A stretch of DNA of 64,000 nt. Source: Escherichia coli. Its GTDB lineage: Bacteria; Pseudomonadota; Gammaproteobacteria; Enterobacterales; Enterobacteriaceae. The stretch lies in NCBI RefSeq assembly GCF_013315695.1, contig NZ_CP054353.1, one strand, 5' to 3'. The translations under genes were made by a program, and so were the position numbers. The notes under the pieces were generated by a model. That model had not been told where the DNA came from, searched no databases, and saw only the letters and a program-made list of their open reading frames with translations. Below, piece by piece: positions 16,003 to 50,593 of the stretch. The number at the start of each line of letters is the position of its first letter. The stretch's first letter is position 1.

Positions 16003-16017
16003 GGTAATGACTCCAAC

Positions 16018-16521
16018 TTATTGATAGTGTTTTATGTTCAGATAATGCCCGATGACTTTGTCATGCAGCTCCACCGATTTTGAGAACGACAGCGACTTCC
16101 GTCCCAGCCGTGCCAGGTGCTGCCTCAGATTCAGGTTATGCCGCTCAATTCGCTGCGTATATCGCTTGCTGATTACGTGCAGCTTTCCCTTCAGGCGGGA
16201 TTCATACAGCGGCCAGCCATCCGTCATCCATATCACCACGTCAAAGGGTGACAGCAGGCTCATAAGACGCCCCAGCGTCGCCATAGTGCGTTCACCGAAT
16301 ACGTGCGCAACAACCGTCTTCCGGAGCCTGTCATACGCGTAAAACAGCCAGCGCTGGCGCGATTTAGCCCCGACATAGCCCCACTGTTCGTCCATTTCCG
16401 CGCAGACGATGACGTCACTGCCCGGCTGTATGCGCGAGGTTACCGACTGCGGCCTGAGTTTTTTAAGTGACGTAAAATCGTGTTGAGGCCAACGCCCATA
16501 ATGCGGGCTGTTGCCCGGCAT
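16018..16521 (-). CDS. insB: IS1 InsB (transposase C-terminal part; expressed as InsAB' by -1 frameshift)
   Basis: 167-aa [56 protein letters not shown]... Confidence 0.93.
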
Positions 16522-16715
16522 CCAACGCCATTCATGGCCATATCAATGATTTTCTGGTGCGTACCGGGTTGAGAAGCGGTGTAAGTGAACTGCAGTTGCC
16601 ATGTTTTACGGCAGTGAGAGCAGAGATAGCGCTGATGTCCGGCGGTGCTTTTGCCGTTACGCACCACCCCGTCAGTAGCTGAACAGGAGGGACAGCTGAT
16701 AGAAACAGAAGCCAC
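16440..16715 (-). CDS. insA: IS1 InsA (transposition repressor / transposase N-terminal part)
   Basis: 91-aa [45 protein letters not shown]... with zinc-finger-like Cys pairs. Confidence 0.93.
16458..16466 (-). promoter_or_regulatory. IS1 programmed -1 ribosomal frameshift site (A6C motif)
   Basis: Plus strand GTTTTTTAA is the reverse complement of TTAAAAAAC in the insA/insB overlap. Confidence 0.7.
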
Positions 16716-16770
16716 TGGAGCACCTCAAAAACACAATCATACACTAAATCAGTAAGTTGGCAGCATCACC

Positions 16771-27729: not shown

Positions 27730-27880
27730 TCATTAGTTTTTTATGATTTATCCCAATGTACTTCCCGATTAATATCGGGGAGTGCCTTAATGGAAAAGGA
27801 GATAACTAAACCTTAATAAATACATCAGTAAAATATCGCAACAATAATATATTTTAAAAAATTATGGTAATGACTCCAAC

Positions 27881-28384
27881 TTATTGATAGTGTTTTATGT
27901 TCAGATAATGCCCGATGACTTTGTCATGCAGCTCCACCGATTTTGAGAACGACAGCGACTTCCGTCCCAGCCGTGCCAGGTGCTGCCTCAGATTCAGGTT
28001 ATGCCGCTCAATTCGCTGCGTATATCGCTTGCTGATTACGTGCAGCTTTCCCTTCAGGCGGGATTCATACAGCGGCCAGCCATCCGTCATCCATATCACC
28101 ACGTCAAAGGGTGACAGCAGGCTCATAAGACGCCCCAGCGTCGCCATAGTGCGTTCACCGAATACGTGCGCAACAACCGTCTTCCGGAGCCTGTCATACG
28201 CGTAAAACAGCCAGCGCTGGCGCGATTTAGCCCCGACATAGCCCCACTGTTCGTCCATTTCCGCGCAGACGATGACGTCACTGCCCGGCTGTATGCGCGA
28301 GGTTACCGACTGCGGCCTGAGTTTTTTAAGTGACGTAAAATCGTGTTGAGGCCAACGCCCATAATGCGGGCTGTTGCCCGGCAT
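27881..28384 (-). CDS. insB: IS1 InsB
   Basis: 167-aa ORF identical to copy 1 InsB. Confidence 0.93.
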
Positions 28385-28578
28385 CCAACGCCATTCATGG
28401 CCATATCAATGATTTTCTGGTGCGTACCGGGTTGAGAAGCGGTGTAAGTGAACTGCAGTTGCCATGTTTTACGGCAGTGAGAGCAGAGATAGCGCTGATG
28501 TCCGGCGGTGCTTTTGCCGTTACGCACCACCCCGTCAGTAACTGAACAGGAGGGACAGCTGATAGAAACAGAAGCCAC
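28303..28578 (-). CDS. insA: IS1 InsA
   Basis: 91-aa ORF; differs from copy 1 at one residue (CSVTDG vs CSATDG). Confidence 0.93.
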
Positions 28579-28633
28579 TGGAGCACCTCAAAAACACCAT
28601 CATACACTAAATCAGTAAGTTGGCAGCATCACC

Positions 28634-30467: not shown

Positions 30468-31235
30468 ATGGAACGAGGCACTGCGTCTGGCGGTGCCTCT
30501 TTACTTAAGGAATTTCATCCTGTGCAAACCCTTCAACAAGTTGAAAACTATACGGCGTTAAGTGAACGTGCCAGCGAATATTTATTGGCCGTGATCCGTA
30601 GCAAACCGGATGCCGTGATTTGCCTGGCGACCGGAGCCACGCCATTACTGACGTATCATTATTTGGTAGAAAAAATCCACCAGCAGCAGGTTGATGTCAG
30701 CCAGCTTACCTTCGTGAAGCTCGACGAATGGGTGGATCTGCCATTAACGATGCCTGGTACCTGCGAAACTTTCCTACAACAGCATATCGTGCAGCCGCTG
30801 GGGCTGCGTGAAGACCAGCTCATCAGCTTTCGCTCTGAAGAGATAAATGAGACAGAGTGCGAACGGGTAACGAACCTGATTGCGCGCAAAGGCGGTCTGG
30901 ATTTATGCGTTCTCGGATTGGGGAAAAACGGTCATCTTGGGCTGAACGAACCGGGAGAAAACCTGCAACCGGCCTGCCATATCAGTCAACTTGATGCCAG
31001 AACACAGCAACATGAGATGTTAAAAACCGCGGGCCGTCCTGTGACTCGTGGGATCACCTTAGGCCTGAAGGATATTCTCAATGCCCGCGAAGTTTTGTTA
31101 CTGGTGACTGGCGAAGGAAAGCAGGATGCGACAGAACGTTTTCTCACGGCTAAAGTCTCTACCGCTATCCCGGCTTCGTTTTTATGGCTGCATAACTATT
31201 TCACATGCATGATTGATGAGATGTGTCGTCGTTAA
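30468..31235 (+). CDS. agaI: putative galactosamine-6-phosphate deaminase/isomerase AgaI (NagB-like)
   Basis: 255-aa ORF MERGTASGGASLLKEFHPVQTLQQVENY... Confidence 0.88.
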   Translation: MERGTASGGASLLKEFHPVQTLQQVENYTALSERASEYLLAVIRSKPDAVICLATGATPLLTYHYLVEKIHQQQVDVSQLTFVKLDEWVDLPLTMPGTCETFLQQHIVQPLGLREDQLISFRSEEINETECERVTNLIARKGGLDLCVLGLGKNGHLGLNEPGENLQPACHISQLDARTQQHEMLKTAGRPVTRGITLGLKDILNAREVLLLVTGEGKQDATERFLTAKVSTAIPASFLWLHNYFTCMIDEMCRR

Positions 31236-31284
31236 CTCGCCTGCTACAGGCGTTGTAGCGCTATTCCTGCTGCAACGCCTGTAA

Positions 31285-32148
31285 TCACTCCCCCTGCTGC
31301 TCCAGCGCATACTTATACAGCGCGTTTTTTTTCACGCCGTGAATCTCTGCCGCCAGCGCCGCCGCTTTCTTCAGCGGAAGCTCAGCCTGTAACAACGCCA
31401 GCGTGCGCAGGGCATCGGCGGGTAAGTCTTCTTCCTGTGCTTTATGGCCTCCGACAATCAGTACCATTTCGCCTTTGCGACGGTTTTCATCTTCTTTGAC
31501 CCACGCCAGCAGCTCGCCAACGGGCGCGCCGTGAATGGTTTCCCAGGTTTTGGTCAGCTCACGCGCCAGAACGACGTAGCGGGATTCGCCTAATACCGCA
31601 ACGATATCTTCCAGGCTATCTAACAGACGGTGGGTAGATTCATAAAAAATCAGCGTGCGCGGCTCCGCTTCAATGGCTTTTAGCGCATCACGGCGGCCTT
31701 TTGATTTGGCAGGTAAAAAGCCTTCATAACAAAAACGATCGGATGGTAAACCCGCGGCGCTTAACGCAGTGATAGCAGCACACGGCCCGGGTAGCGGCAC
31801 CACGCGAATCCCCGCTTCACGGCAGGTACGCACCAGATGGTAGCCAGGATCGTTAATTAGCGGCGTTCCGGCATCGGAAACCAGCGCAATGTTTTGCCCC
31901 TCTTGCAGCTTCGCCAGCAGCGTTTCGGCTTTTTGTTGTTCGTTATGGTCGTGCAGCGCAAACAACCGAGCATTAATCCCAAAATGTTGCAGCAATAAAC
32001 CGGTGTGACGCGTATCCTCGGCGGCAATCAGATCAACGGCCTGTAATACCTCCAACGCACGCTGGGTGATATCCGCCAGATTGCCGATTGGCGTCGGTAC
32101 AATGTAAAGCTGGCCCTGAGAATTATCCGCCGATTGGTGTTGTTTCAT
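31285..32148 (-). CDS. rsmI: 16S rRNA C1402 2'-O-methyltransferase RsmI (YraL)
   Basis: 287-aa [38 protein letters not shown]... Confidence 0.92.
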
Positions 32149-32212
32149 TGTGTCGTCCGTATTGCCGATTTAATATTGAGCATTGCGTAAAAAAAATATC
32201 ACTGGATACATT

Positions 32213-34249
32213 ATGGTACCCTCAACATTTTCTCGTTTGAAAGCCGCGCGTTGTCTGCCTGTTGTTCTGGCAGCCCTGATTTTCGCCGGTTGTGGCACCC
32301 ATACTCCCGATCAGTCCACTGCTTATATGCAGGGCACGGCGCAGGCTGATTCTGCCTTTTACCTGCAACAGATGCAGCAAAGTTCTGATGATACCAGGAT
32401 CAACTGGCAATTACTCGCCATTCGTGCACTGGTGAAAGAAGGTAAAACCGGACAGGCGGTGGAGTTGTTTAACCAACTACCGCAAGAACTGAACGATTCT
32501 CAGCGTCGCGAGAAAACACTGCTGGCGGCAGAGATTAAACTGGCGCAGAAAGATTTTGCTGGCGCGCAAAACTTGCTGGCGAAAATCACACCTGCAGATT
32601 TAGAACAAAACCAGCAAGCGCGTTACTGGCAGGCAAAAATCGATGCCAGCCAGGGGCGTCCTTCCATTGATTTACTGCGCGCGTTAATTGCTCAGGAACC
32701 GCTGCTCGGCGCGAAAGAAAAGCAGCAGAATATTGACGCCACCTGGCAGGCGCTCTCCTCCATGACTCAGGAACAGGCGAATACGCTCGTGATCAATGCC
32801 GACGAAAATATTCTGCAAGGCTGGTTGGATCTGCAGCGCATCTGGTTTGATAACCGTAACGATCCCGACATGATGAAAGCCGGGATCGCCGACTGGCAGA
32901 AACGTTATCCGAACAACCCGGGCGCGAAAATGCTGCCAACGCAGTTGGTTAACGTAAAAGCGTTTAAACCCGCATCGACCAACAAAATCGCCCTGCTTTT
33001 GCCACTGAATGGCCAGGCAGCGGTATTTGGTCGCACTATTCAGCAAGGCTTTGAAGCGGCGAAAAATATCGGCACTCAGCCAGTGGCGGCCCAGGTAGCT
33101 GCCGCACCTGCCGCAGACGTAGCAGAACAACCTCAGCAGCAAACCGTGGATGGCGTTGCCAGCCCGGCACAAGCCTCGGTTAGCGATCTGACCGGTGAAC
33201 AACCTGCGGCCCAGCCGGTGCCTGTAAGCGCCCCGGCGGCAACCACCGCAGCGGTAAGCGCACCCGCGAATCCATCCGCAGAGCTGAAAATCTACGATAC
33301 ATCATCACAACCACTTAGCCAGATCCTCAACCAGGTTCAACAGGATGGCGCGAGTATTGTGGTCGGTCCGTTGCTGAAAAATAACGTTGAAGAGTTGCTG
33401 AAGAGCAACACCCCGCTGAACGTGCTGGCACTGAACCAGCCGGAGAACATCGAAAACCGCGTCAATATTTGTTACTTCGCGCTTTCACCGGAAGACGAAG
33501 CGCGCGATGCAGCGCGTCATATTCGTGACCAGGGTAAACAAGCGCCGCTGGTGCTGATCCCACGCAGTTCATTGGGCGATCGCGTAGCCAATGCGTTTGC
33601 GCAAGAGTGGCAGAAACTGGGTGGCGGCACCGTTCTGCAACAAAAATTTGGTTCCACCAGCGAATTACGCGCGGGTGTTAACGGCGGTTCGGGTATTGCT
33701 TTAACGGGTAGCCCGATTACTCCCAGAGCGACAACCGACTCCGGCATGACGACCAACAATCCAACGCTGCAAACCACGCCAACCGATGACCAGTTCACCA
33801 ATAATGGCGGCCGTGTCGATGCGGTGTACATTGTGGCAACGCCGGGCGAAATCGCTTTTATCAAACCGATGATCGCCATGCGTAACGGTAGCCAGAGCGG
33901 TGCAACGCTGTACGCAAGCTCCCGCAGTGCGCAAGGCACCGCGGGTCCGGATTTCCGTCTGGAAATGGAAGGTTTGCAATATAGCGAAATCCCGATGCTG
34001 GCGGGCGGTAATCTGCCATTAATGCAGCAGGCGCTCAGTGCGGTGAATAACGATTATTCGCTGGCTCGCATGTATGCGATGGGCGTTGATGCCTGGTCGT
34101 TGGCAAATCATTTCTCACAAATGCGCCAGGTTCAGGGTTTCGAAATCAACGGTAATACCGGAAGTCTGACGGCTAACCCGGATTGCGTAATTAACAGGAA
34201 GTTATCATGGCTACAGTACCAACAAGGTCAGGTAGTCCCCGCCAGTTAA
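32213..34249 (+). CDS. lpoA: outer-membrane lipoprotein LpoA (YraM), activator of PBP1A
   Basis: ORF 32183..34249; start taken at [27 protein letters not shown] (lipobox). Confidence 0.92.
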
Positions 34250-34602
34250 CCACCAAACAGACCGGCGATGCGTGGGAAGCACAAGCGCGTCGCTGGCTGG
34301 AAGGCAAAGGACTGCGGTTTATCGCCGCTAACGTGAACGAGCGTGGCGGCGAGATCGATCTGATAATGCGTGAAGGCCGGACCACCGTTTTTGTCGAGGT
34401 GCGTTACCGCCGCTCTGCGCTTTATGGCGGCGCGGCAGCCAGTGTGACCCGCAGCAAACAACACAAATTATTACAGACTGCCCGCTTGTGGCTCGCGCGT
34501 CATAATGGGAGTTTTGATACTGTGGATTGCCGGTTCGATGTGGTAGCCTTCACCGGGAATGAGGTTGAGTGGATTAAGGATGCCTTTAATGACCACTCAT
34601 AA
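34207..34602 (+). CDS. yraN: UPF0102 family protein YraN
   Basis: 131-aa ORF overlapping lpoA 3-prime end. Confidence 0.85.
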
Positions 34603-34621
34603 TTAAGGTTTAAGGATTAGC

Positions 34622-35212
34622 GTGCAAGAAAGAATTAAAGCTTGCTTCACTGAAAGCATTCAAACTCAAATTGCGGCGGCAGAGGCGCTTCCGGATGCCA
34701 TCTCGCGTGCAGCTATGACGCTGGTTCAGTCTCTGCTCAATGGCAACAAAATCCTCTGTTGTGGTAATGGAACTTCCGCTGCCAATGCACAGCATTTTGC
34801 TGCCAGCATGATCAACCGTTTCGAAACGGAGCGGCCCAGCTTACCTGCCATTGCACTAAATACTGATAATGTTGTCTTAACGGCGATTGCCAACGATCGC
34901 TTACATGATGAAGTGTATGCAAAACAGGTGCGGGCGCTGGGTCATGCGGGAGATGTATTGTTAGCCATTTCCACCCGTGGCAACAGCCGCGATATTGTAA
35001 AAGCGGTAGAAGCTGCCGTTACGCGTGATATGACCATTGTGGCATTAACCGGCTATGACGGCGGTGAACTTGCAGGTTTGTTAGGGCCACAGGATGTGGA
35101 GATCCGCATTCCTTCGCATCGTAGTGCTCGCATTCAGGAGATGCATATGCTGACGGTAAATTGCCTGTGCGATCTGATCGATAACACGCTTTTCCCTCAC
35201 CAGGATGTTTAA
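34622..35212 (+). CDS. diaA: DnaA initiator-associating protein DiaA (SIS domain)
   Basis: 196-aa [39 protein letters not shown]... Confidence 0.92.
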
Positions 35213-35221
35213 GGAGAATAC

Positions 35222-35797
35222 ATGAAGGCATTATCGCCAATCGCAGCCCTTCTTTCCGCGCTGCTGTTGCAAGGTTGTGTTGCCGCTGCCGTAGTGGGTA
35301 CCGCTGCTGTGGGTACCAAAGCCGCAACGGACCCACGCAGTGTCGGCACCCAGGTAGACGATGGTACCCTGGAAGTGCGCGTGAACAGCGCATTGTCGAA
35401 AGACGAACAAATTAAGAAAGAAGCGCGCATTAATGTAACGGCCTATCAGGGCAAAGTGCTGTTGGTTGGGCAGTCACCAAACTCTGAACTTTCGGCTCGC
35501 GCTAAACAAATTGCGATGGGCGTAGACGGTGCCAACGAAGTGTATAACGAGATTCGTCAGGGCCAGCCGATTGGTCTGGGCGAAGCGTCTAACGATACGT
35601 GGATCACCACCAAAGTGCGTTCGCAGCTCTTAACCAGCGACCTGGTGAAATCGTCCAACGTGAAAGTGACCACCGAAAACGGTGAAGTGTTCCTGATGGG
35701 GCTGGTGACTGAACGTGAAGCGAAAGCGGCGGCAGATATTGCCAGCCGGGTGAGCGGCGTAAAGCGTGTAACTACGGCGTTTACGTTTATTAAATAG
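35222..35797 (+). CDS. dolP: dual-BON-domain outer-membrane lipoprotein DolP (YraP)
   Basis: 191-aa ORF MKALSPIAALLSALLLQGCVAAAVVG... (lipobox). Confidence 0.9.
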   Translation: MKALSPIAALLSALLLQGCVAAAVVGTAAVGTKAATDPRSVGTQVDDGTLEVRVNSALSKDEQIKKEARINVTAYQGKVLLVGQSPNSELSARAKQIAMGVDGANEVYNEIRQGQPIGLGEASNDTWITTKVRSQLLTSDLVKSSNVKVTTENGEVFLMGLVTEREAKAAADIASRVSGVKRVTTAFTFIK

Positions 35798-35905
35798 CAG
35801 CCCTTGTAATGCCTGATGCGACGCTTGCAGCGTCTTATCAGGCCTACAACGATGCAAACCGTAGGTCGGATAAGGCGTTTACGCCGCATCCGACATGTTT
35901 TCCCT
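35798..35905. repeat. REP/BIME palindromic unit cluster
   Basis: GCCTGATGCGACGCTTGCAGCGTCTTATCAGGCCTAC and GTAGGTCGGATAAGGCGTTTACGCCGCATCCGACA motifs. Confidence 0.75.
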
Positions 35906-35909
35906 CAAA

Positions 35910-36950
35910 TCAAGCCAACAGCGCCAACCCGCCGACAATCACACCAGACACTGCCACCATCGCCCCTGTCAGCCATAAGGCTTTCGCCGGGAACGCTTTG
36001 CGCAGCATAATCAGTGACGGCAAACTCACCGCCGGGAGCGTCATCAACAATGCCAGCGCCGGAGCAGTTCCCATACCTGCCAGCATCATCGTTTGTACAA
36101 TCGGAATTTCTGCTGCCGTGGGAATGACAAACAAGCATCCTGCCACCGCCATCGCCACCACCCACATCAGGCTGTTATCGACAGCACCATCGGCATGGGG
36201 GAATAGCCAGACGCGAGCGGCACCCAACACCAGTACTGCAAGGATGTAAACCGGGATCGTACTCCAGAAAAGCGTCCATAGCGCCCTGCCCCAGCGGCTA
36301 AAAAATCCTCCCTGTGCTTCCGGTATGTCAATTTCGACCGGTGCCTGCGTTTGCGGTGTTTCACGCACCCATTTTTGCACCAGCGTCGCAATCAGCAACA
36401 CCATCACCAGCCCCGCCACCAGACGAATCGCCGCAAAACCCCAGCCGAGGACGAACCCCATAAACACCAGCGTCGCCGGGTTTAACAACGGATTCCCCAT
36501 CCAGAATGCCAGCGCACCGCCCATCGACACCTGTTGGCGACGCATTCCCGCCGCGACCGGAGCCGCACAGCAGGTACACATCATGCCCGGCAGCGAAAAC
36601 AGCGTTCCCAGCAGCGTGCCGCGAAAGCGCGATTGCCCAAGCGTACGCAATAACCAGTCACGCGGGATCAGCACCTGAATCAACGACCCGAGCAGTACGC
36701 CCAGCACCGCCGCTTTCCATACCGCGAGGAAATAGATCATCGCGTAATCCAACGCCGCCTGCCACGGATTAGCATCCGCCTGCGCAAGGATAGATTTACC
36801 GATACTGTGGGTTTCGGCAGCAGTAAACGCTTTGCCGTAGTAAGGTTGCCATTTCACATACCAGAGACCGGCAATGACAACGAGAAAGAAAAGCGCGGGT
36901 TTCCACCACTGAATGGGCGTTGCCGCCTGAGATGAAGACTGACCAGTCAT
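35910..36950 (-). CDS. yraQ: putative permease YraQ
   Basis: 346-aa multi-pass membrane ORF. Confidence 0.85.
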   Translation of the reverse strand: MTGQSSSQAATPIQWWKPALFFLVVIAGLWYVKWQPYYGKAFTAAETHSIGKSILAQADANPWQAALDYAMIYFLAVWKAAVLGVLLGSLIQVLIPRDWLLRTLGQSRFRGTLLGTLFSLPGMMCTCCAAPVAAGMRRQQVSMGGALAFWMGNPLLNPATLVFMGFVLGWGFAAIRLVAGLVMVLLIATLVQKWVRETPQTQAPVEIDIPEAQGGFFSRWGRALWTLFWSTIPVYILAVLVLGAARVWLFPHADGAVDNSLMWVVAMAVAGCLFVIPTAAEIPIVQTMMLAGMGTAPALALLMTLPAVSLPSLIMLRKAFPAKALWLTGAMVAVSGVIVGGLALLA

Positions 36951-37022
36951 AGCATTCCCCAGGAATAAGTTATGATAATTGAGCGCGTGAATATTACGCT
37001 CACTATCAATTCTTGGGAATAA

Positions 37023-37668
<646 letters not shown>

Positions 37669-37695
37669 TTACAGAATTGTCTGCCTTGCGCTCCC

Positions 37696-37747
<52 letters not shown>

Positions 37748-37748
37748 A

Positions 37749-38283
<535 letters not shown>

Positions 38284-38304
<21 letters not shown>

Positions 38305-38727
38305 GCCGCGTAGCCATACCAGTTTTTTACCAAAGCCCAGCGTGTTGTCGGTGAATTTGATTTCATCGAGCCGGATTTCCCACACCGGTGCCGACAGCAT
38401 TCTGGCAACCGGAAAGCGACGATTGTACGCCTGGCGCGCACGCTCGCTTTCCTCACCTTCAAGCCTGCGGATCTCGCCTTTAAATTGCACGCCGCGAATT
38501 AACGCTACCGTTTTCGGCTGACCGTTTACCGTTCCGGCAACTGCCGCCTGCGGCCCACTCATCTGCGCGTGGCGCGTTTTTTCTTCCGTCAAAATGTAGA
38601 AGGCGACTTTCTGCGCATCAAAAAGATAAAAGGCATTAGCGCACCACAGTTCCCCTTCCTGCTGCACACACCAGGTGACAACATGTTGTTTTGCCAGCCA
38701 ACGGCTGATGGCGGTGAGTGTTTCCAT
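38284..38727 (-). CDS. yhbP: UPF0306 protein YhbP
   Basis: 147-aa [37 protein letters not shown]... Confidence 0.85.
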
Positions 38728-38777
38728 TGCTGTTCTCTTTTATACTGTGGGCCTGACCTTAACATGCGACGCAGACG

Positions 38778-39080
38778 ATGACACCCTGGTTTCTTTACTT
38801 GATCCGTACCGCCGACAATAAGCTTTATACCGGGATCACCACAGATGTCGAACGCCGCTATCAGCAGCACCAAAGCGGCAAAGGGGCGAAAGCACTGCGC
38901 GGGAAAGGAGAACTAACGCTGGCGTTTTCCGCGCCAGTGGGCGATCGTTCGCTGGCACTACGGGCGGAATATCGCGTTAAGCAACTGACCAAACGGCAAA
39001 AAGAGCGTCTGGTAGCGGAAGGCGCAGGGTTTGCAGAACTGTTGAGCAGCCTGCAAACCCCAAAGATTAAAAGCGATTGA
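38778..39080 (+). CDS. yhbQ: GIY-YIG domain protein YhbQ
   Basis: 100-aa [37 protein letters not shown]... Confidence 0.88.
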
Positions 39081-39570
39081 AGTGCTCGTGATACTCAACC
39101 AGACCAGTTACACCGTTCAGCGCGTCATCCGCTAAACGATGTACCTGGAAGGCACTTTCAGTGCCCGGCCAGCGGCAACGCAGATCGTGATGTGCCGCCA
39201 GTTCAAAGCCGAAACGGCTGTACAGCGCCGGATCGCCCAGCGTCACCACTGCGGCATAGCCGAACTCATTAAGCGAATCGAGTCCTTCATAGACCAGTTG
39301 GCGTGCCAGCCCCTGTCCACGGTATTTTTCATCTACCGCCAGCGGTGCCATGCCGACCCATTGCAGGTCTTCGCCCTGCACATCAACCGGACTGAATGCC
39401 ACATAGCCAATGACCTGACCTTCGTCATCTGTCGCCACCAGCCCCAACGTCAGAAAGCCATCTTCACGCAGATCGTGAACCAGCTTCGCTTCCGCATCAC
39501 TTTCGAATGAACGACGCAGCAGGGCATCAATACCCGGCGCATCAATGGGAATTTCTACTCGAATTAGCAT
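39067..39570 (-). CDS. yhbS: GNAT-family N-acetyltransferase YhbS
   Basis: 167-aa [26 protein letters not shown]... Confidence 0.88.
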
Positions 39571-40088
39571 GGTTCACCTACCGATGTCTGTTTGGTTTCA
39601 GGCGCGGTTTTCATTCCCGCCTCAACAAAATCCGCCAGTTGCAGCAGCATCATGCGTAAGGCATTCGGCATTTGCTCCAGTTCAATGGCGTCCATCAGGT
39701 TTTTCACATACAGCCCCAGCTCCGTATCGCCTTCAATCACCAGCCGACGCTGGAAGAAGAGCGTATCCGGATCTTGTTTACGCGCCGCAATCATCAGCAG
39801 ATCGCTGGCGTCGGCACTAAAACTCACATCAGCTTGCGCGTTCTGGCTAACGACCAGTTTGCCATTCACCACCGAGGTAAACCATTGCAGGTCAATATCA
39901 CGCACATGAATACTTAACCAGCGGCCTTCAAGAAACTCCAGCTCGCCATCATCCAGCGCCTGACGGAATTGCCAGCTTAAGACCTGCTCAAGAACCTGGC
40001 GTTTTAGCGCAAATGGCGTCAGTTTTACCGGTACACTCAACAGAGATGGCCCCAAATGCACAATACGGGAACGCAGTTTATCCAACAC
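39564..40088 (-). CDS. ubiT: SCP2-domain protein UbiT (YhbT), anaerobic ubiquinone biosynthesis accessory factor; start uncertain
   Basis: ORF 39564..40112; likely GTG start giving about 174 aa (…LDKLRSRIVHLGPSLLSVPVKLTPF…). Confidence 0.75.
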   Translation of the reverse strand: MLDKLRSRIVHLGPSLLSVPVKLTPFALKRQVLEQVLSWQFRQALDDGELEFLEGRWLSIHVRDIDLQWFTSVVNGKLVVSQNAQADVSFSADASDLLMIAARKQDPDTLFFQRRLVIEGDTELGLYVKNLMDAIELEQMPNALRMMLLQLADFVEAGMKTAPETKQTSVGEPC

Positions 40089-40296
40089 GAGTTTTACTCC
40101 CTGTTTCAACAATCATCCTATTTTGCCATATCAGAAAAATAACATAGCGGTATAAATCAACAATTCCATATGAAATTGCTGCTACCACCAATACAACTTT
40201 AACTGCCTTAAATCAAAAATTGTCGCAGCAAGGTTAACTAAAATCCCAGTTCGTTAACATTTTTGCGCTTTGATAGCGCAACCTTCAGGAAAAATT

Positions 40297-41292
40297 ATGG
40301 AGCTGCTCTGCCCTGCCGGAAATCTCCCGGCGCTTAAGGCGGCCATCGAAAACGGCGCAGATGCTGTTTATATCGGGCTAAAAGATGATACCAATGCCCG
40401 TCACTTCGCCGGCCTTAACTTTACCGAGAAAAAATTGCAGGAAGCGGTGAGTTTTGTCCATCAACATCGCCGCAAACTTCACATCGCGATTAACACTTTT
40501 GCGCATCCGGACGGTTACGCCCGTTGGCAGCGCGCCGTGGATATGGCGGCGCAGCTGGGTGCCGACGCGCTGATCCTCGCCGACCTCGCCATGCTGGAGT
40601 ACGCCGCCGAGCGTTACCCGCATATTGAGCGTCATGTGTCAGTGCAGGCTTCGGCGACCAATGAAGAGGCGATTAACTTTTATCATCGCCATTTTGACGT
40701 TGCCCGCGTGGTGCTGCCGCGCGTGTTGTCGATTCATCAGGTGAAACAACTGGCACGGGTCACACCTGTCCCGCTGGAAGTGTTTGCTTTCGGCAGCCTG
40801 TGCATTATGTCGGAAGGCCGTTGCTATCTGTCGTCGTATTTGACGGGTGAGTCGCCCAACACTGTGGGTGCGTGTTCTCCGGCCCGTTTCGTGCGCTGGC
40901 AACAAACGCCGCAGGGGCTGGAATCCCGCCTGAACGAAGTGCTGATCGACCGTTATCAGGACGGCGAAAACGCAGGTTATCCGACGCTGTGTAAAGGGCG
41001 TTATCTGGTGGACGGCGAACGCTATCACGCGCTGGAAGAACCCACCAGTCTCAATACCCTGGAACTGCTGCCGGAGTTAATGGCAGCGAATATTGCTTCG
41101 GTGAAAATTGAAGGCCGCCAGCGTAGCCCGGCGTATGTCAGCCAGGTGGCGAAAGTCTGGCGTCAGGCTATCGACCGTTGTAAGGCCGATCCGCAAAACT
41201 TCATACCGCAAAGCGCGTGGATGGAGACGCTCGGGTCGATGTCCGAAGGCACGCAGACCACCCTTGGCGCGTATCACCGTAAATGGCAGTGA
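40297..41292 (+). CDS. ubiU: U32-peptidase-family protein UbiU (YhbU), O2-independent ubiquinone hydroxylation
   Basis: ORF 40270..41292; start taken at MELLCPAGNLPALKAAIENGADAVYIGLKD. Confidence 0.88.
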   Translation: MELLCPAGNLPALKAAIENGADAVYIGLKDDTNARHFAGLNFTEKKLQEAVSFVHQHRRKLHIAINTFAHPDGYARWQRAVDMAAQLGADALILADLAMLEYAAERYPHIERHVSVQASATNEEAINFYHRHFDVARVVLPRVLSIHQVKQLARVTPVPLEVFAFGSLCIMSEGRCYLSSYLTGESPNTVGACSPARFVRWQQTPQGLESRLNEVLIDRYQDGENAGYPTLCKGRYLVDGERYHALEEPTSLNTLELLPELMAANIASVKIEGRQRSPAYVSQVAKVWRQAIDRCKADPQNFIPQSAWMETLGSMSEGTQTTLGAYHRKWQ

Positions 41293-41300
41293 GAAAAGCA

Positions 41301-42179
41301 ATGAAATATTCCTTAGGGCCAGTGCTGTGGTACTGGCCAAAAGAGACGCTGGAAGATTTTTATCAGCAGGCCGCCGCCAGCAACGCAGACGTGATTTATC
41401 TCGGTGAAGCGGTCTGTAGCAAACGCCGGGCAACCAAAGTTGGCGACTGGCTGGAGATGGCAAAATCGCTCGCCGGAAGTGGCAAGCAGATTGTGCTCTC
41501 CACGCTGGCGCTGGTGCAGGCATCCTCCGAACTGGGCGAACTGAAACGCTATGTTGAGAACGGTGAGTTTCTGATTGAAGCCAGCGATCTCGGCGTGGTG
41601 AATATGTGCGCTGAACGCAAACTGCCGTTCGTCGCCGGGCACGCGCTGAACTGCTACAACGCGGTGACGCTGAAAATATTGCTTAAACAGGGCATGATGC
41701 GCTGGTGTATGCCGGTGGAGCTTTCCCGCGACTGGCTGGTGAATCTACTTAATCAGTGCGATGAACTGGGTATTCGCAACCAGTTTGAAGTGGAAGTCCT
41801 GAGCTACGGTCATCTGCCGCTGGCCTACTCCGCCCGCTGCTTTACCGCGCGTTCGGAAGACCGCCCGAAAGATGAGTGCGAAACCTGCTGCATTAAGTAT
41901 CCGAACGGGCGCAACGTGCTGTCGCAGGAAAACCAACAAGTGTTTGTACTCAACGGCATTCAGACCATGAGCGGCTACGTTTACAACCTCGGTAACGAGC
42001 TGGCATCCATGCAGGGGCTGGTCGATGTGGTCCGCCTGTCACCGCAGGGTACTGACACTTTCGCGATGCTCGACGCCTTCCGCGCCAATGAAAATGGCGC
42101 TGCGCCACTGCCGTTGACGGCAAACAGCGATTGTAACGGCTACTGGAGACGGTTGGCGGGGCTGGAGCTGCAAGCCTAA
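41301..42179 (+). CDS. ubiV: U32-peptidase-family protein UbiV (YhbV)
   Basis: ORF 41283..42179; start taken at MKYSLGPVLWYWPKETLEDFY. Confidence 0.88.
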   Translation: MKYSLGPVLWYWPKETLEDFYQQAAASNADVIYLGEAVCSKRRATKVGDWLEMAKSLAGSGKQIVLSTLALVQASSELGELKRYVENGEFLIEASDLGVVNMCAERKLPFVAGHALNCYNAVTLKILLKQGMMRWCMPVELSRDWLVNLLNQCDELGIRNQFEVEVLSYGHLPLAYSARCFTARSEDRPKDECETCCIKYPNGRNVLSQENQQVFVLNGIQTMSGYVYNLGNELASMQGLVDVVRLSPQGTDTFAMLDAFRANENGAAPLPLTANSDCNGYWRRLAGLELQA

Positions 42180-42259
42180 GCAAATAGCTCACTTTGTTAA
42201 CAACTTTAACTACTCTTTAATGCAGTATTAAAGATTAATCGGTAACAAAGTGAGCTGTT

Positions 42260-43267
42260 ATGACTGATAAAACCATTGCGTTTTCGCTACTCGATCTGGC
42301 CCCCATCCCCGAAGGCTCTTCAGCGCGAGAAGCGTTCTCCCACTCTCTCGATCTCGCCCGTCTGGCTGAAAAGCACGGCTATCATCGCTACTGGCTGGCA
42401 GAACACCACAATATGACCGGTATTGCCAGTGCTGCAACATCAGTTTTGATTGGCTATCTGGCAGCGAATACCACCACACTGCATCTGGGGTCTGGCGGCG
42501 TGATGTTGCCTAACCACTCACCGTTGGTGATCGCCGAACAATTCGGCACGCTCAATACGCTCTATCCGGGGCGAATCGATTTGGGGCTGGGTCGTGCACC
42601 GGGTAGCGATCAGCGAACCATGATGGCGCTGCGTCGTCATATGAGCGGCGATATTGATAATTTCCCCCGCGATGTCGCGGAACTGGTGGACTGGTTTGAC
42701 GCCCGCGATCCCAATCCGCATGTGCGCCCGGTACCAGGCTATGGCGAGAAAATCCCCGTGTGGTTGTTAGGCTCCAGCCTTTACAGCGCGCAACTGGCGG
42801 CGCAGCTTGGTCTGCCGTTTGCGTTTGCCTCACACTTCGCGCCGGATATGTTGTTCCAGGCGCTGCATCTTTATCGCAGCAACTTCAAACCGTCGGCACG
42901 GTTGGAGAAACCGTATGCGATGGTGTGCATCAATATTATCGCCGCCGACAGCAACCGCGACGCTGAATTTCTGTTTACCTCGATGCAGCAAGCCTTTGTG
43001 AAGCTGCGCCGTGGCGAAACCGGGCAACTGCCGCCGCCGATTCAAAATATGGATCAGTTCTGGTCACCGTCCGAGCAGTATGGCGTGCAGCAGGCGCTGA
43101 GTATGTCGCTGGTGGGTGATAAAGCGAAAGTGCGTCATGGTTTGCAGTCGATCCTGCGCGAAACCGACGCCGATGAGATTATGGTTAACGGGCAGATTTT
43201 CGACCACCAGGCGCGCCTGCATTCGTTTGAGCTGGTGATGGATGTGAAGGAAGAATTATTGGGGTAG
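42260..43267 (+). CDS. yhbW: luciferase-like monooxygenase family protein YhbW
   Basis: 335-aa [53 protein letters not shown]... Confidence 0.88.
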
Positions 43268-43269
43268 TG

Positions 43270-43385
43270 TGTTTTAACGTAGGAAGCCTTATCCGAGATG
43301 GCAACGCTGTCCTACACAATGCCTGATAAGCGAAGCGCATCAGGCATTGTGTAGGCAGCAGAAATGTCGGATAAGGCACCGCTGA
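43270..43385. repeat. REP/BIME palindromic element
   Basis: CCTTATCCGAGATGGCAAC...CAATGCCTGATAAGCGAAGCGCATCAGGCATTG...GTCGGATAAGGC inverted repeats. Confidence 0.7.
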
Positions 43386-44630
43386 TTACTGATACACCGG
43401 CAGCAAATTAAAGCTCGATAAAATATGCACCAGTGCGTTGCCAACGCCAAACACCAGAATCAGCGCAATCATCGGCTTGCCGCCCCAGACGCGGAATTTC
43501 GGGCTGCCAAAGCGTTTACGCGATGCGCGGGCCAACAGCGCCGGTACAATTGCCGCCCAGATAGTAGCTGCTAAGCCAGCATAACCAATGGCGTACAGGA
43601 ATCCATTCGGGAACAGCAGACCACCCACGACAGGCGGGGCAAAGGTCAACAATGCTGTTTTCAAGCGGCCCATAGCCGAGTCATCGAAACCAAACAGATC
43701 TGCCAGATAGTCAAACAAACCCAGCGTTACGCCAAGGAACGAACTCGCTACCGCAAAGTTTGAGAACACGACCAGCAGAAGATCCAGGCTACGGCTGTTC
43801 AGCACGCCGCTTAACGCCTGTACCAGCACATCAATATTACCGCCCTTCTCGGCGATGCCGATAAACTCCGGACGAGGGATGTTGCCCATCGTCGCCAGCA
43901 ACCAGATGGTATACAGCGCCAGCGCCATCAGCGTACCGTACACCAGGCATTTCACGATGGTTTTCGGATCTTTGCCGTAATACTTCATCAGGCTCGGCAC
44001 GTTACCGTGATAACCAAACGATGCCAGACAGAATGGCAGTGTCATCAGCAGATACGGCGCATAAGACGCATTGCTTTCGGCGACGTTGAACAATGTCGCA
44101 GGCTGTACATGCCCCAGTAGGCTACCGAAGGTGAGGAAGAAGGTAATGACTTTCGCACCCAGCACAATCGCCGTCATGCGGCTGACCGCTTTGGTGCTCA
44201 ACCACACCACAAACGCCACCAGCAGTGCAAAACCAAAACCCGCTGCCCGTGCCGGGACGTTCAATGACATCTCTGCGAAGGTATGATGCAGAATCGAACC
44301 GCTGGCAGAAATATAGGCATAGGTCAGGATATAGAGCACAAAGGCAATGGAAATGCCGTTGACCACGTTCCAGCCTTTGCCCAGCAAATCTTTGGTGATG
44401 GTGTCAAAGCTCGAACCGATTCGGTAATTCAGGTTAGCTTCCAGAATCATCAAGCCGGAATGCAGCATACAGAACCAGGTAAAGATCAGCGCCGCCATTG
44501 ACCAGAAGAACCACGCCCCGGACATGACCACTGGCAGAGAAAACATCCCTGCGCCAATAATGGTGCCGCCGATAATCACCACGCCGCCAAGCAGCGACGG
44601 TGACGTTTGGGTGGTGGTTAGTGTTGCCAT
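43386..44630 (-). CDS. mtr: tryptophan-specific permease Mtr
   Basis: 414-aa membrane [38 protein letters not shown]... Confidence 0.92.
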
Positions 44631-44704
44631 GAGGGCTTCTCTCCAGTGAAAAATAGTGCGACTGCGTTGTTATGCATTGCACTGTACCAGTACATGAGTA
44701 CAAA

Positions 44705-44740
44705 AGACAGAAAAAAAGCCCCGATTGTTAAAATCGGGGC
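44705..44740 (-). terminator. rho-independent terminator downstream of deaD
   Basis: GCCCCGATT-TTAACAA-TCGGGGC hairpin followed on the minus strand by TTTTTTTCTGTCTTTT. Confidence 0.7.
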
Positions 44741-44783
44741 TGTATATATTATTTTACAGACTGTATTCGCTGTTCAGCGATGA

Positions 44784-46673
44784 TTACGCATCGCCACCGA
44801 AACGACGACGACCGGTAGAGTCATCACGACGCGGTGCGCGGCCTTCACGACGTTCGCCGCTAAAACGACGACCATCACTACGGCCACCTTCACGGCGTTC
44901 ACCGCTGAAGTTACGACCGCCTTCACGACGTTCGCCACCGAAACCACGACCACCGCCACGACGCTCACCGCCAGTATGCGGCTGTGCATCGCCCAGTAAC
45001 TGCATATTCATCGGCTTGTTGAGAATGCGAGTACGCGTAAAGTGTTGCAGCACTTCACCCGGCATACCTTTCGGCAGTTCGATGGTGGAGTGAGAAGCAA
45101 ACAGCTTGATGTTACCGATGTAACGGCTGCTGATGTCGCCTTCGTTAGCAATCGCACCAACGATATGACGAACTTCAACACCATCATCGCGGCCCACTTC
45201 AATGCGGTACAGCTGCATATCGCCAACATCACGACGTTCGCGACGCGGACGATCTTCACGGTCGCCACGCGGGCCACGGTCGTTACGATCGCGCGGACCA
45301 CGGTCATCACGGTCACGGAATTCACGTTTCGGACGCATCGGCGCATCTGGCGGAACAATCAGAGTACGTTCACCCTGTGCCATTTTCAGCAGTGCGGCGG
45401 CCAGAGTTTCGAGATCCAGCTCTTCACCTTCTGCCGTCGGCTGAATTTTGCTCAGCAGTGCACGGTATTGATCCAGATCGCTGCTTTCCAGCTGCTGCTG
45501 TACTTTAGCGGCGAATTTTTCCAGACGACGTTTGCCCAGCAGTTCTGCGTTCGGCAGTTCAACTTCCGGAATGGTCAGCTTCATGGTGCGTTCAATGTTA
45601 CGCAGCAGACGACGCTCACGGTTCTCAACGAACAGCAGCGCACGGCCAGCACGGCCCGCACGACCAGTACGACCGATACGGTGAACGTAAGACTCAGAAT
45701 CCATCGGGATATCGTAGTTAACTACCAGGCTGATACGCTCAACGTCCAGGCCACGGGCCGCAACGTCGGTCGCAATCAGGATGTCCAGACGACCATCTTT
45801 CAGTCGTTCCAGTGTCTGCTCACGCAGCGCCTGGTTCATGTCACCGTTCAGCGCGGCGCTGTTGTAGCCGTTACGCTCAAGAGCTTCTGCCACTTCCAGA
45901 GTCGCGTTTTTGGTACGAACGAAGATAATCGCCGCATCAAAATCTTCCGCTTCCAGGAAACGTACCAGTGCTTCGTTTTTACGCATACCCCAGACAGTCC
46001 AGTAGCTCTGGCTGATGTCAGGACGGGTAGTCACGCTGGACTGAATGCGCACTTCCTGCGGCTCTTTCATAAAGCGGCGGGTAATGCGACGAATCGCTTC
46101 CGGCATGGTTGCAGAGAACAGAGCGGTCTGATGACCTTCCGGGATCTGCGCCATAATAGTTTCAACGTCTTCGATGAAGCCCATGCGCAGCATTTCGTCA
46201 GCTTCATCCAGAACCAGACCGCTCAATTTAGAGAGGTCCAGAGTGCCACGTTTCAGGTGGTCCAGCAGACGGCCCGGAGTACCGACAACGATCTGCGGCC
46301 CCTGACGCAGGGCGCGTAATTGCACGTCATAACGTTGGCCGCCGTACAGGGCAACCACGTTTACGCCGCGCATGTGTTTAGAGAAATCCGTCATTGCTTC
46401 AGCAACCTGTACCGCCAGTTCGCGGGTCGGTGCCAGCACCAGAATCTGTGGTGCTTTCAGCTCAGGATCAAGATTCTGCAGCAGAGGTAAAGAGAATGCT
46501 GCAGTTTTTCCGCTCCCCGTCTGGGCCATACCCAGAACGTCGCGGCCATTCAGCAGATGTGGAATACACTCTGCCTGAATTGGAGATGGTTTTTCGTAAC
46601 CCAGATCGTTAAGGGCTTCAAGGATAGGAGCCTTCAGGCCCAGATCTGCAAAAGTGGTTTCGAATTCAGCCAT
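44784..46673 (-). CDS. deaD: cold-shock DEAD-box RNA helicase DeaD (CsdA)
   Basis: ORF 44784..46739; start taken at [21 protein letters not shown] (629 aa); DEAD and SAT motifs; RGG/ERR-rich C-terminal tail. Confidence 0.93.
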
Positions 46674-46746
46674 GTAGTACGTGTGCCTCAAAATTAATGG
46701 CGGCCAGTCTACATAACTCATCATGAAATTGATCAGCAATTTTCAT
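46666..46746 (-). CDS. yrbN: small protein YrbN (26 aa), overlapping the deaD start
   Basis: ATG-initiated 26-codon [29 protein letters not shown]; stop overlaps deaD start codon region by 8 nt; identity from recall of a 26-aa yrbN at this position. Confidence 0.5.
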
Positions 46747-46852
46747 TGAAAAGTGTGAACCGGCTCAAAGTAGGTGTATTAACGAACAACAACGCCCTCA
46801 CCCGTTAAGGTGATGGCAATCAAAAAAGATTACGGGCTGATGTGTACGTCAG

Positions 46853-47737
46853 CTATTGCTGGTCCGATTCTGCCAGGTCATCTTGGTCCTGGCCCAGGAG
46901 CGATAATTCCAACAATGCGTATCGGTGCTCAACAAAGTTATGAACGTTGTTGGCAACCGCCAGTTTGAACAGTGCCGTGGCGCTGTCCAAATCCCCCAGA
47001 CTTAGGTAGTACTTACCTAAATAGAAGTTGGTTTCACTGAGATGCTCAGCGAGCGAGGTGTTATCCGTTGCGTCCGCCTTGAGCCTTTCCATTAACGTTT
47101 GTTCGCTAATGTTGCCCAGGTAGAACTCGACAATGTTCCATCCCCACTGTTCCTTATCCGATTTTTCGAAGTGCTGTTTCAACACTTCTTTAGCCTGCTT
47201 CTCATCGAGCTTCTGCTCGGCGAGATAAAGCCACAGACTACGGAAAGGATCATTGGGATCGTCTTGATAAAACGCCAGCAGATCATCTTGCGCTAACTTG
47301 TCACGACCGCCGTAATATAATGCGATCCCGCGATTCAAGTGCGCGTAGTTGTAAGTTGGATCAAGCTCAAGTACAGAATCAAACGCTTCATAGGCAGCAT
47401 CAAAATTGCCTGCCTGCGTTAAATATATGCCTAAGTAATTGAATACTTCAGGCATATCCGGTCGGATTGCCAGCGCTTGCGAAAAATCGTTACGCGCTAA
47501 TGCCCTCAGACCGAGACTATCATACAACACTCCGCGCTCATATAAAAGCTGTGCGCGTTCGTCATCGGTTAAAGCCCGACTGGCAAGGATCTGTTCCATA
47601 CGTGCCAGAATCACTTCCTGCTGTAAAGTCGGTTGCAATGGTACCGCGAGGACTTCACTTTTACGCCAGGAAGTATTACTGCATCCTGCAAGCGTAAGTG
47701 CTGTCGCAACGAAACACCAGCGCAAAAAAGGCTTCAT
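46853..47737 (-). CDS. nlpI: TPR-repeat outer-membrane lipoprotein NlpI
   Basis: 294-aa [32 protein letters not shown]... (lipobox). Confidence 0.93.
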
Positions 47738-47845
47738 TTCCCACTCCCGAAGACCACGGTTGAATGAACGTCCTGTTCCCGGTTGCTAACAAGGCGTCCT
47801 GCCCGGTTAAAAGCCCCCCGCCGCAGCGGAGGGCAAATGGCAACC

Positions 47846-49981
47846 TTACTCGCCCTGTTCAGCAGCCGGAGCTTCCGGTGCTGCAGCAGGTTGAGACTGC
47901 TCAGTCGCTTCTTTAATGCTCAGACGGATACGGCCCTGGCGATCAACTTCCAGCACTTTCACCGGTACTTCCTGACCCATCTGCAGGTAATCGGTCACTT
48001 TCTCAACGCGTTTATCAGCGATTTGAGAGATGTGTACCAGACCTTCTTTACCGCCGCCGATGGCAACAAATGCGCCGAAGTCAACGATACGGGTCACTTT
48101 ACCAGTGTAGACGCGGCCCACTTCAATTTCTGCAGTGATCTCTTCGATACGACGAATAGCGTGTTTCGCTTTCTCGCCGTCGGTCGCTGCGATCTTCACA
48201 GTACCGTCATCTTCGATTTCGATGGTGGTGCCGGTTTCTTCGGTCAGGGCACGGATAACAGAGCCGCCTTTACCGATAACGTCTTTGATCTTGTCCGGGT
48301 TGATCTTGATGGTATGGATACGCGGAGCGAACTCAGAGATATCGCCGCGCGGCGCGTTGATCGCCTGTTCCATTACGCCCAGGATATGCAGACGAGCACC
48401 TTTAGCCTGGTTCAGCGCAACCTGCATGATCTCTTTGGTGATACCTTCAATTTTGATATCCATCTGCAATGCAGAGATACCGTCGCGGGAACCCGCAACT
48501 TTGAAGTCCATATCGCCCAGGTGATCTTCGTCGCCCAAAATGTCAGACAGTACAACGTAGTTGTCGCCTTCTTTCACCAGACCCATTGCGATACCCGCAA
48601 CAGCAGCTTTGATCGGCACACCTGCGTCCATCAGCGCCAGAGACGCGCCGCACACGGAAGCCATAGAAGAAGAACCGTTGGATTCGGTGATTTCAGACAC
48701 CACACGTACGGTGTACGGGAATTTGTCCATATCCGGCATGACTGCCAGCACGCCGCGCTTCGCCAGACGACCGTGACCAATTTCACGACGCTTCGGAGAA
48801 CCGACCATGCCGGTTTCGCCTACGGAGTACGGAGGGAAGTTGTAGTGGAACAGGAAGGTGTCAGTACGTTCGCCCATCAGTTCATCAAGAACCTGCGCGT
48901 CACGTGCAGTACCCAGCGTTGCGGTAACCAGCGCCTGAGTTTCACCACGGGTGAACAGCGCAGAACCGTGAGTACGCGGCAGCACGCCAGTACGCACATC
49001 CAGACCACGAATCATATCTTTTTCACGACCGTCGATACGCGGTTCGCCTGCCAGTACGCGGCTACGAACAACGTTTTTCTCGATAGCGTGCAGAATTTCA
49101 CCCAGTTCGTTTTCGTCCAGGGTTTCATCTTCAGCAAGCAGCGTCGCGATGGTTTCAGATTTGATGACATCAACCTGCGCATAACGCTCTTGTTTGTCGG
49201 TGATGCGGTAAGCATCGCTCAGACGAGCTTCAGCCAGTGCAGCAACGCGCGCGTTCAGCGCTTCGTTTACCGGCTCCGGCTGCCAGTCCCAACGCGGTTT
49301 ACCGGCTTCTTTCACCAGTTCATTGATGTTCTGAATGACAACCTGCTGTTGTTCATGACCAAACACTACTGCGCCCAACATCTGGTCTTCGCTCAGCAGT
49401 TCAGCTTCAGATTCAACCATCAGTACAGCGGCTTCAGTACCCGCAACAACCAGATCCAGTTTGCTCTCTTTCAGCTCGTCCTGAGTCGGGTTCAGTACGT
49501 ACTGGTCATTGATGTAACCTACGCGGGCAGCACCAATCGGACCATTGAACGGAATACCAGACAGAGACAGTGCTGCGGAAGCACCAATCATCGCGACGAT
49601 ATCCGGGTTAACTTGCGGGTTAACAGAAACCACGGTGGCGATAACCTGAACTTCGTTGACGAAGCCTTCCGGGAACAGCGGGCGAATCGGGCGGTCAATC
49701 AGACGCGCGATCAGGGTTTCGCCTTCGCTTGGGCGGCCTTCACGACGGAAGAAGCTACCCGGGATACGACCAGCAGCGTAGGTACGCTCCTGATAGTTAA
49801 CGGTCAGTGGGAAGAAGTCCTGACCTGGTTTGGCTTTTTTCTGGCCAACAACGGTAACGAATACCGCGGTGTCATCCATGCTAACCATAACAGCGGCAGT
49901 AGCCTGACGAGCCATCATGCCGGTTTCCAGAGTCACGGTGTGTTGGCCGTACTGGAATTTACGAACGATCGGATTAAGCAA
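47846..49981 (-). CDS. pnp: polynucleotide phosphorylase (PNPase), UUG start
   Basis: ORF 47846..50068; N-terminus [21 protein letters not shown] with TTG at complement of 49979..49981; KH and S1 domains at C-terminus. Confidence 0.93.
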
Positions 49982-50037
49982 TGTAATATCCTTTCTCTTT
50001 CTTAGACAGTACCTTACGGCACTGGTGTTAATACCCG

Positions 50038-50211
50038 ATCTTCTGCGCATCCTCGCGACTAATGACAACCCTAACCCAGCCCAATGTGGGTAAAGCCTCT
50101 CATTAGCCGCGCGAACCTCTGCAACGGAAGATCATTCATAGCAACAATACATTAGTTTCCAGTGAATTGCTGCCGTCAGCTTGAAAAAAGGGGCCACTCA
50201 GGCCCCCTTTT
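50038..50211 (+). ncRNA. sraG: small RNA SraG (PsrO), antisense to the pnp leader; boundaries approximate
   Basis: Placed from remembered K-12 spacing (about 57 nt from pnp start, ending about 17 nt before rpsO stop); ends at the bidirectional hairpin. Confidence 0.4.
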
Positions 50212-50213: not shown

Positions 50214-50227
50214 GAAACTCGCAAGAA

Positions 50228-50593
<366 letters not shown>

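Follow-up and report, generated by a model that had tools for sequence, protein, structure and literature searches.

A yra-less agaI–rsmI junction in Escherichia coli, probably an old empty allele of a variable fimbrial site

Chaperone-usher types of Escherichia coli that are fixed to one locus, such as Auf and Ycb or Yqi and Yqi-like, are mutually exclusive; it has been proposed that they were acquired through horizontal transfer or homologous recombination and then inherited vertically or lost (Wurpel et al. 2013, PMC3559732). The yraHIJK operon, one of the 12 chaperone-usher operons of MG1655 (PMC8174762), is polymorphic between lineages, and its acquisition has been placed on the E/B1/A branch (González-Alba et al. 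2019, PMC6896753). The yra genes are also among those exclusively expressed in A/B1 urinary isolates (PMC4128348).

A Yra-type operon consists of yraH, yraI, yraJ and yraK, whose products of about 190, 230, 840 and 360 amino acids are the major subunit, the chaperone, the usher and a tip/adhesin-like subunit, and it adjoins rsmI. It is reportedly one of the cryptic fimbrial operons of K-12 that prove functional under artificial expression.

We analysed a stretch of 64,000 nt from an E. coli chromosome (contig NZ_CP054353.1 of assembly GCF_013315695.1), hereafter the window, in which agaI and rsmI are direct neighbors. The site is the one at which the published polymorphism separates E/B1/A from F/G/B2 (PMC6896753), running from agaI to rsmI (formerly yraL), and the window represents its yra-negative state. 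That the site is polymorphic, how yra is distributed over the lineages and which polarity is proposed have all been published (PMC6896753), and what is seen here is an ordinary lineage difference.

The junction in the window and its counterpart in K-12

In the window, agaI, annotated as galactosamine-6-phosphate isomerase, occupies positions 30468..31235 on the plus strand (255 codons), and rsmI, encoding the 16S rRNA C1402 2'-O-methyltransferase, positions 31285..32148 on the minus strand (287 codons). Both reading frames, taken from the ORF list, match their NCBIfam equivalog models well above the cutoffs (AgaI, NF007291, 472 bits against 271; RsmI, NF011570, 626 bits against 502). The TAA stop codon of agaI ends at 31235 and the stop codon of rsmI, read as TCA on the plus strand, starts at 31285. 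The two genes are thus convergent and adjacent, with no gene between them and a spacer of exactly 49 bp (31236..31284) that is specific to the yra-less haplotype and has no counterpart in K-12. The ORF list, the stop positions and the family matches therefore bear out the preliminary description of this DNA, which had agaI followed directly by rsmI with 49 bp between the convergent stops. Its statement that yraHIJK is missing likewise holds over all 64 kb of the window, since tblastn with 28 Yra-family proteins as queries returned no match at E ≤ 1e-5; no four-gene Yra-type chaperone-usher operon is present. The finished chromosome of E. coli MS 21-1, in which both genes are annotated, matches about 2 kb around the junction at 100% identity. 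A literature search found nothing on the phylogroup of MS 21-1. The strain from which the window comes belongs to a rare lineage, with about five complete genomes at approximately 100% identity and all others at or below 99.0%.

In K-12 MC4100 the annotated order is agaI - yraH - yraI - yraJ - yraK - rsmI, and the stop codons of agaI and rsmI are separated by 5449 bp; the products are a fimbrial protein (yraH), a chaperone (yraI), an usher (yraJ) and a second fimbrial protein (yraK). The preliminary description had named an error in its K-12 gene order as what would overturn it; the order it gave is correct, since K-12 carries yraHIJK at exactly that position. The alternative allele at this site is thus yraHIJK together with a 400-bp AT-rich upstream region. 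The GC content of the K-12 yra segment is 45.3% overall, 27.2% in the 400-bp upstream region and 46.7% in the four genes, with flanks at 49-53%. Only yraHIJK lies between agaI and rsmI there, and no integrase, IS element or tRNA is annotated in or next to the segment. A search of the K-12 yra segment for the flanking repeats that the preliminary description had suggested looking for gave 20 direct families and 19 inverted pairs, all of them short, internal and of chance quality, and no direct or inverted pair joins the two ends. We considered whether yra could be an integrase- or transposon-borne genomic island. The lack of integrase or transposase, of repeats and of a tRNA or att site in K-12 speaks against this, the lower GC being the only island-like feature.

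The polymorphic segment does not begin and end at the stop codons. AgaI of K-12 has 251 amino acids and a tail reading ..HSNFICLINT, and the window stop comes four codons later. The AgaI tail in the window reads ..HNYFTCMIDEMCRR and ends in ..DEMCRR (255 aa); the longer C-terminal stretches, each running to the stop, are ..LWLHNYFTCMIDEMCRR in the window and ..LWLHSNFICLINT in K-12. The left edge of the segment lies inside agaI, in its last 43 nt or so (31193..31235, plus strand), where similarity to the K-12 allele collapses: window and K-12 disagree, by a count made by eye, at about 13 of the 27 nt that form the last nine agaI codons common to both, and in yra-bearing genomes the megablast match ends at query position 957, which is 31192 in the window. 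Divergence from K-12 on the agaI side is 17% in the last 100 alignment columns, versus about 0-5% per 100 nt upstream. On the rsmI side it is 10% in the 3'-terminal 100 nt and 0-6% further in, and the RsmI C-terminus is ..EQQGE in the window (287 aa) and ..EQQG in K-12 (286 aa). The edges are thus sharp, and just outside them divergence is of the ordinary intraspecies kind. A sharp edge about 100 nt from the junction is what allelic replacement via flanking homology would leave. The preliminary description had spoken of a clean difference without scar or mobile element. As to mobile elements this is right, as the window sequence has no IS element or IS remnant at the junction and its spacer holds nothing beyond a hairpin; clean is too strong a word, since agaI and rsmI each have different 3' ends in the two states and the difference is not exact to the base.

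The C-termini of AgaI and RsmI are consequently allele-specific and linked to the yra state. Deletion of agaI was without effect on the use of N-acetylgalactosamine and galactosamine in E. coli O157:H7 and C (PMC3668189). The allele-specific AgaI tail therefore need not have a phenotype.

Two IS1 copies lie elsewhere in the window. One, of 768 bp (27866..28633), is found at the start of agaB, where it takes the place of 296 nt present in MS 21-1 (NZ_CP146670), namely 30 nt upstream of agaB and the first 266 of its 477 nt. This copy has no target duplication and therefore looks like the product of an IS1-adjacent deletion; the loss truncates agaB, the gene for the galactosamine PTS IIB component, and the window differs from NZ_CP146670 at this point. 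The roughly 50% divergence at the left of the agaBCDI alignment reflects this insertion and is not true divergence. The other copy (16003..16770), in the same orientation and identical to the first at 766 of 768 positions, interrupts the galactarate dehydratase gene garD near its 5' end, after ..KVHDTDNVAI, and has a 9-bp target duplication, TGTGGCAAT, on both sides.

Distribution, age and anatomy of the empty allele

A junction query of 2049 bp spanning agaI–rsmI was searched against 5426 complete E. coli genomes. The junction is contiguous, that is empty, in 1835 of them; in the remaining genomes the alignment of the query is interrupted near 31192 and 31291 of the window. Of the same 5426 genomes, 3523 (about two thirds) contain the K-12 yra segment, 3264 of them at a coverage of at least 80%. 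The segment occupies 3549 places, all chromosomal and none on a plasmid, and is occasionally interrupted by an IS element. As 1835 and 3523 add up to 5358, about 68 of the 5426 genomes must have some other arrangement. Carriers of the empty allele include the ST131 strains EC958, JJ1886 and SE15 and many avian/APEC strains, O78:H4 isolates among them; K-12, C41(DE3) and O157:H7 carry yra. ST131 belongs to phylogroup B2 and the O78:H4 APEC are mostly ST117, phylogroup G; K-12 and the derivatives of strain B fall in phylogroup A, and O157:H7 in phylogroup E. The distribution of yra carriers agrees with the A/B1-exclusive expression of yra in urinary isolates (PMC4128348). For the strain analysed here, the consequence is that one cryptic K-12 fimbrial type is missing, as it is in about one third of complete E. 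coli genomes.

Two further E. coli genomes have unusual arrangements near the site. In FXCREC145 (NZ_CM135823.1), of the ST131 haplotype, ISApl1 (IS30 family) is annotated under the junction match together with two galactosamine-6-phosphate isomerase fragments, so that agaI is apparently broken by this element a short way upstream of the empty junction. SCPM-O-B-8794 (NZ_JAATUR010000001.1, 10861..12890) has garD some 460 bp from the rsmI stop and, in the 10 kb past rsmI, no match to AgaD, AgaI or Yra; both aga and yra are apparently missing there.

Empty junctions were aligned from the window, five other E. coli genomes spanning 96.0-98.4% identity (one of them of the ST131 haplotype), the divergent 'E. 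coli' strain E69 and E. albertii. The alignment has zero gaps across all sequences and a mean column identity of 96%. Every aligned empty locus has an agaI of 768 nt, a spacer of 49 bp and an rsmI of 864 nt. The signature of the empty haplotype, which the window has in full, comprises an AgaI ending in ..DEMCRR, the 49-bp spacer with a 16-bp hairpin and an RsmI ending in ..QQGE. Flank divergence from the window is about 7% for E69 and about 9% for E. albertii (rough means over alignment windows), so that the empty haplotype spans deep lineages. The empty junction is therefore a single orthologous haplotype with its own AgaI tail, hairpin spacer and RsmI stop.

The occupied state is old as well, being common to K-12 and E. 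whittamii, a species closer to E. coli in the genus phylogeny than E. albertii is. E. whittamii has the order agaI-yraHIJK-rsmI and a yraK-rsmI spacer of 42 bp, equal in length to that of K-12; nucleotide identity between the two is 80.5-85.4% in the yra genes and 89-91% in the flanks. Because both alleles are common to several species, both must either predate E. coli or have crossed species boundaries. As to whether one can be turned into the other by loss, we searched the yra-bearing loci of K-12, E. whittamii, Escherichia sp. MOD1-EC7003, Klebsiella, Citrobacter and Superficieibacter for the approximately 31 nt unique to the empty allele and for its hairpin, and found only chance-level matches (best E = 0.37). 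With no source there for the unique 31 nt or so, the junction cannot have been produced by deletion of yra from the sampled occupied haplotypes.

The spacer hairpin, at 31245..31283 between the convergent stop codons, was found by RNA folding and has a 16-bp stem and a 7-nt loop. Its folding energy is -27.1 kcal/mol on the plus strand (z -6.7) and -24.4 kcal/mol on the minus strand (z -3.3). Among seven distinct yra-less sequences the pairing is kept in 95.5% of cells, versus 17-51% with slid partners. Covariation amounts to one double-sided change (G-C to A-U in E69), a count that 68 of 500 shuffles reach and that is not significant; the hairpin is accordingly conserved, with its structure unproven by covariation. 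A canonical Rho-independent terminator was considered and rejected: stem and loop are present, but on neither strand is the stem followed by a T-run, and the hairpin falls outside the canonical class. This is also why the consensus terminator scan, which was blank for the spacer, did not report it. A promoter scan found none in the spacer, and Rfam gave no match at E ≤ 1 on either strand of 31000..31500. The hairpin is probably a 3'-end stem-loop shared by the convergent agaI and rsmI transcripts, and despite its non-canonical form it may act in transcript stabilisation or termination. The yraK–rsmI gap of K-12 has a different hairpin, of 9 bp, with a U-rich tail on the rsmI strand; the two have a CGTTGC/GCAACG core in common and are of uncertain homology. 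Three Citrobacter loci with a 141-bp agaI-rsmI spacer contain three tandem copies of a unit of about 13 nt (TTCTTCCGACATT) and a hairpin whose stem, GCGTTGCAG/CTGCAACGC, resembles that of the Escherichia empty site.

The rsmI 3' flank in Enterobacteriaceae

RsmI loci were collected from one genome per species, and 80 were listed (E. fergusonii, E. marmotae and E. ruysiae are not among them). The gene found just past the rsmI stop in these 80 loci is GatR-like in 13, GarD in 12, AgaI in 11, YraK-like in 6, KbaY in 5, AgaD in 3 and other or unassigned in 30. Direct adjacency of agaI and rsmI, seen in those 11, extends over Escherichia, Citrobacter, Enterobacter, Trabulsiella, Phytobacter and one unclassified MAG. 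The six yra-like operons belong to E. whittamii, Escherichia sp. MOD1-EC7003, K. oxytoca, K. spallanzanii, Citrobacter sp. MGH106 and Superficieibacter; they agree in gene order and protein sizes, and each adjoins rsmI. In the genera other than Escherichia the neighbor to the left of the operon is the galactitol (gat) cluster and not aga, and among the 80 loci listed aga and yra occur together in Escherichia only. The curated cutoffs are exceeded in K. oxytoca by GatD (682 bits) and by the galactitol PTS IIC component (666 bits); the best family for the DeoR-family regulator there is AgaR at 236 bits, below the 260-bit cutoff, so that "gatR-like" is a designation from context only. Citrobacter is itself polymorphic, C. 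youngae CCUG 30791 having gatR-like–rsmI and Citrobacter sp. MGH106 gatR-like–yra–rsmI.

The ushers of the Klebsiella, Citrobacter and Superficieibacter loci are 62-68% identical to that of K-12, and LpoA 67-81%; among the loci listed, Citrobacter has the usher most similar to the K-12 type (68%). MOD1-EC7003 has a four-gene yra-type operon between agaI and rsmI (1696..6711 of locus L015, NZ_PTRE01000040.1) with 52-64% protein identity to K-12 Yra. Its usher is 58% identical to that of K-12 versus 65-67% to the Klebsiella/Superficieibacter type, while LpoA is at 94% and the flanks are typical of Escherichia. These identities indicate that in MOD1-EC7003 one yra-type operon lineage has been replaced by another at the same site. 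In the same locus, agaD and agaI are set apart by about 0.9 kb of additional DNA.

Gaps of about 0.4-1.3 kb between rsmI and the next panel gene in the yra-less loci contain no yra remnants. Most gaps of about 1 kb past rsmI hold an unrelated ORF of about 250-340 codons on the rsmI strand, another cargo of this position. It is found within the first 0.8-1.1 kb or so past the rsmI stop in eight loci from several genera, next to a gatR-like gene, garD, agaD or agaI, and in most of them its product starts with MSRYQPPF(T/S)ITP..LN.V.EIGELLGHW. Altogether, the DNA flanking the 3' end of rsmI is a zone of plasticity in Enterobacteriaceae, a context to be kept in mind in synteny comparisons.

Origin of the empty state and relation to known systems

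As the preliminary description had said, the window by itself gives no polarity, and the outgroups add that neither state is recent. We favor, with reasonable though not full confidence, the reading that the window carries an old empty allele of a multi-allele site whose alleles are exchanged through flank homology, yra having been gained on the E/B1/A branch. Lineages would exchange alleles when the conserved flanks, agaI/agaD to the left and rsmI/lpoA to the right, undergo homologous recombination. This is the likely route because K-12 yra comes without repeats, IS element or integrase, and transposition or site-specific integration would not be the means of exchange. Within E. coli the empty allele would be the older one and the E/B1/A lineage the recipient of yra, as published. 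The presence of the K-12-type allele in E. whittamii is a point against this reading.

That the operon exists in the organism and was collapsed or lost during assembly or annotation deserves hardly any credence: MS 21-1, whose chromosome was finished independently, has the identical junction, five complete genomes agree at approximately 100% over the backbone on the rsmI side (32200..57000), 1835 complete genomes repeat the architecture of the junction, and the ORFs of both flanking genes are intact and match their families over the full length. A recent deletion, by which the strain or its immediate lineage lost yraHIJK from a K-12-like agaI-yraHIJK-rsmI chromosome, would be the simplest way of losing 5.4 kb, and IS1 is active in the window, with two copies, one of them beside the 296-bp agaB deletion. 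It is nevertheless very improbable, given that the same architecture is found in those 1835 genomes, in E69 and in E. albertii, that no IS element or remnant marks the junction, and that the spacer and the AgaI tail have no source in yra-bearing haplotypes. Attempts to build the junction by deletion from the yra-bearing loci sampled met only chance-level matches; together with the age of both alleles, this excludes a recent deletion in the strain. The main rival is an ancient deletion. In it, the K-12 state is ancestral, with yra beside rsmI already in the forebears of Escherichia and related Enterobacteriaceae, and the window state, though derived, is old, the empty allele having originated in a single early deletion and then diverged and persisted or spread by recombination. 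Yra-like operons of the same order and sizes abut rsmI in four genera, the K-12-type usher is nearest to that of Citrobacter (68%), as the species tree predicts, and in Citrobacter, too, yra is present in one genome and absent from another, here with a gatR-like DeoR-family gene at the left. Since usher identities in these other genera are about those of LpoA, yra beside rsmI could indeed predate Escherichia, in which case the empty allele would be derived at a deeper level. We nonetheless consider an ancient deletion rather unlikely. Direct agaI–rsmI adjacency was listed in 11 of the 80 loci versus 6 with a yra-like neighbor; among these loci aga and yra co-occur in Escherichia alone; the yra segment has a GC content below that of its flanks; and the yra-less loci examined hold no yra remnants. 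Moreover, MOD1-EC7003 shows replacement by foreign operon lineages at the site, so the occurrence of yra in several genera need not mean vertical descent. Whichever polarity applies at depth, the event is ancient and not specific to this strain.

A broader and more doubtful proposal would make the rsmI 3' side a docking site conserved across Enterobacteriaceae, at which divergent yra-type lineages (the K-12/E. whittamii/Citrobacter type, the Klebsiella/Superficieibacter type and the MOD1-EC7003 type) and the empty allele are swapped by flank-homology recombination whatever the left neighbor, be it aga, gat or gar. The trans-species polymorphism would then owe its persistence to selection on a surface antigen or an adhesin, exerted for instance by host immunity or by phages using it as a receptor, and not to neutral gain and loss. 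Returning to the favored reading of an old empty allele, the site bears no deletion scar, and the presence or absence of yra would best be scored as an allele swap in E. coli history.

Fimbrial presence/absence differences also arise from tRNA-associated pathogenicity islands, such as those for P, S, F1C and Pix fimbriae. The yra site is unlike these islands, as it has no annotated tRNA or integrase, no flanking direct repeats, a single fixed position and no plasmid copies. It is closer to the locus-fixed types of Wurpel et al. (PMC3559732): in both cases there is one fixed chromosomal position, presence follows the phylogroups, and divergent types interchange. The divergent operon of MOD1-EC7003 fits their replacement pattern, a likeness by pattern, Yra having no standalone mention in the text of that study. 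With respect to the published yra polymorphism (PMC6896753), the locus described here adds the base-level anatomy of the empty allele, its orthology with that of E. albertii, and the occurrence of yra-like operons beside rsmI in other genera.
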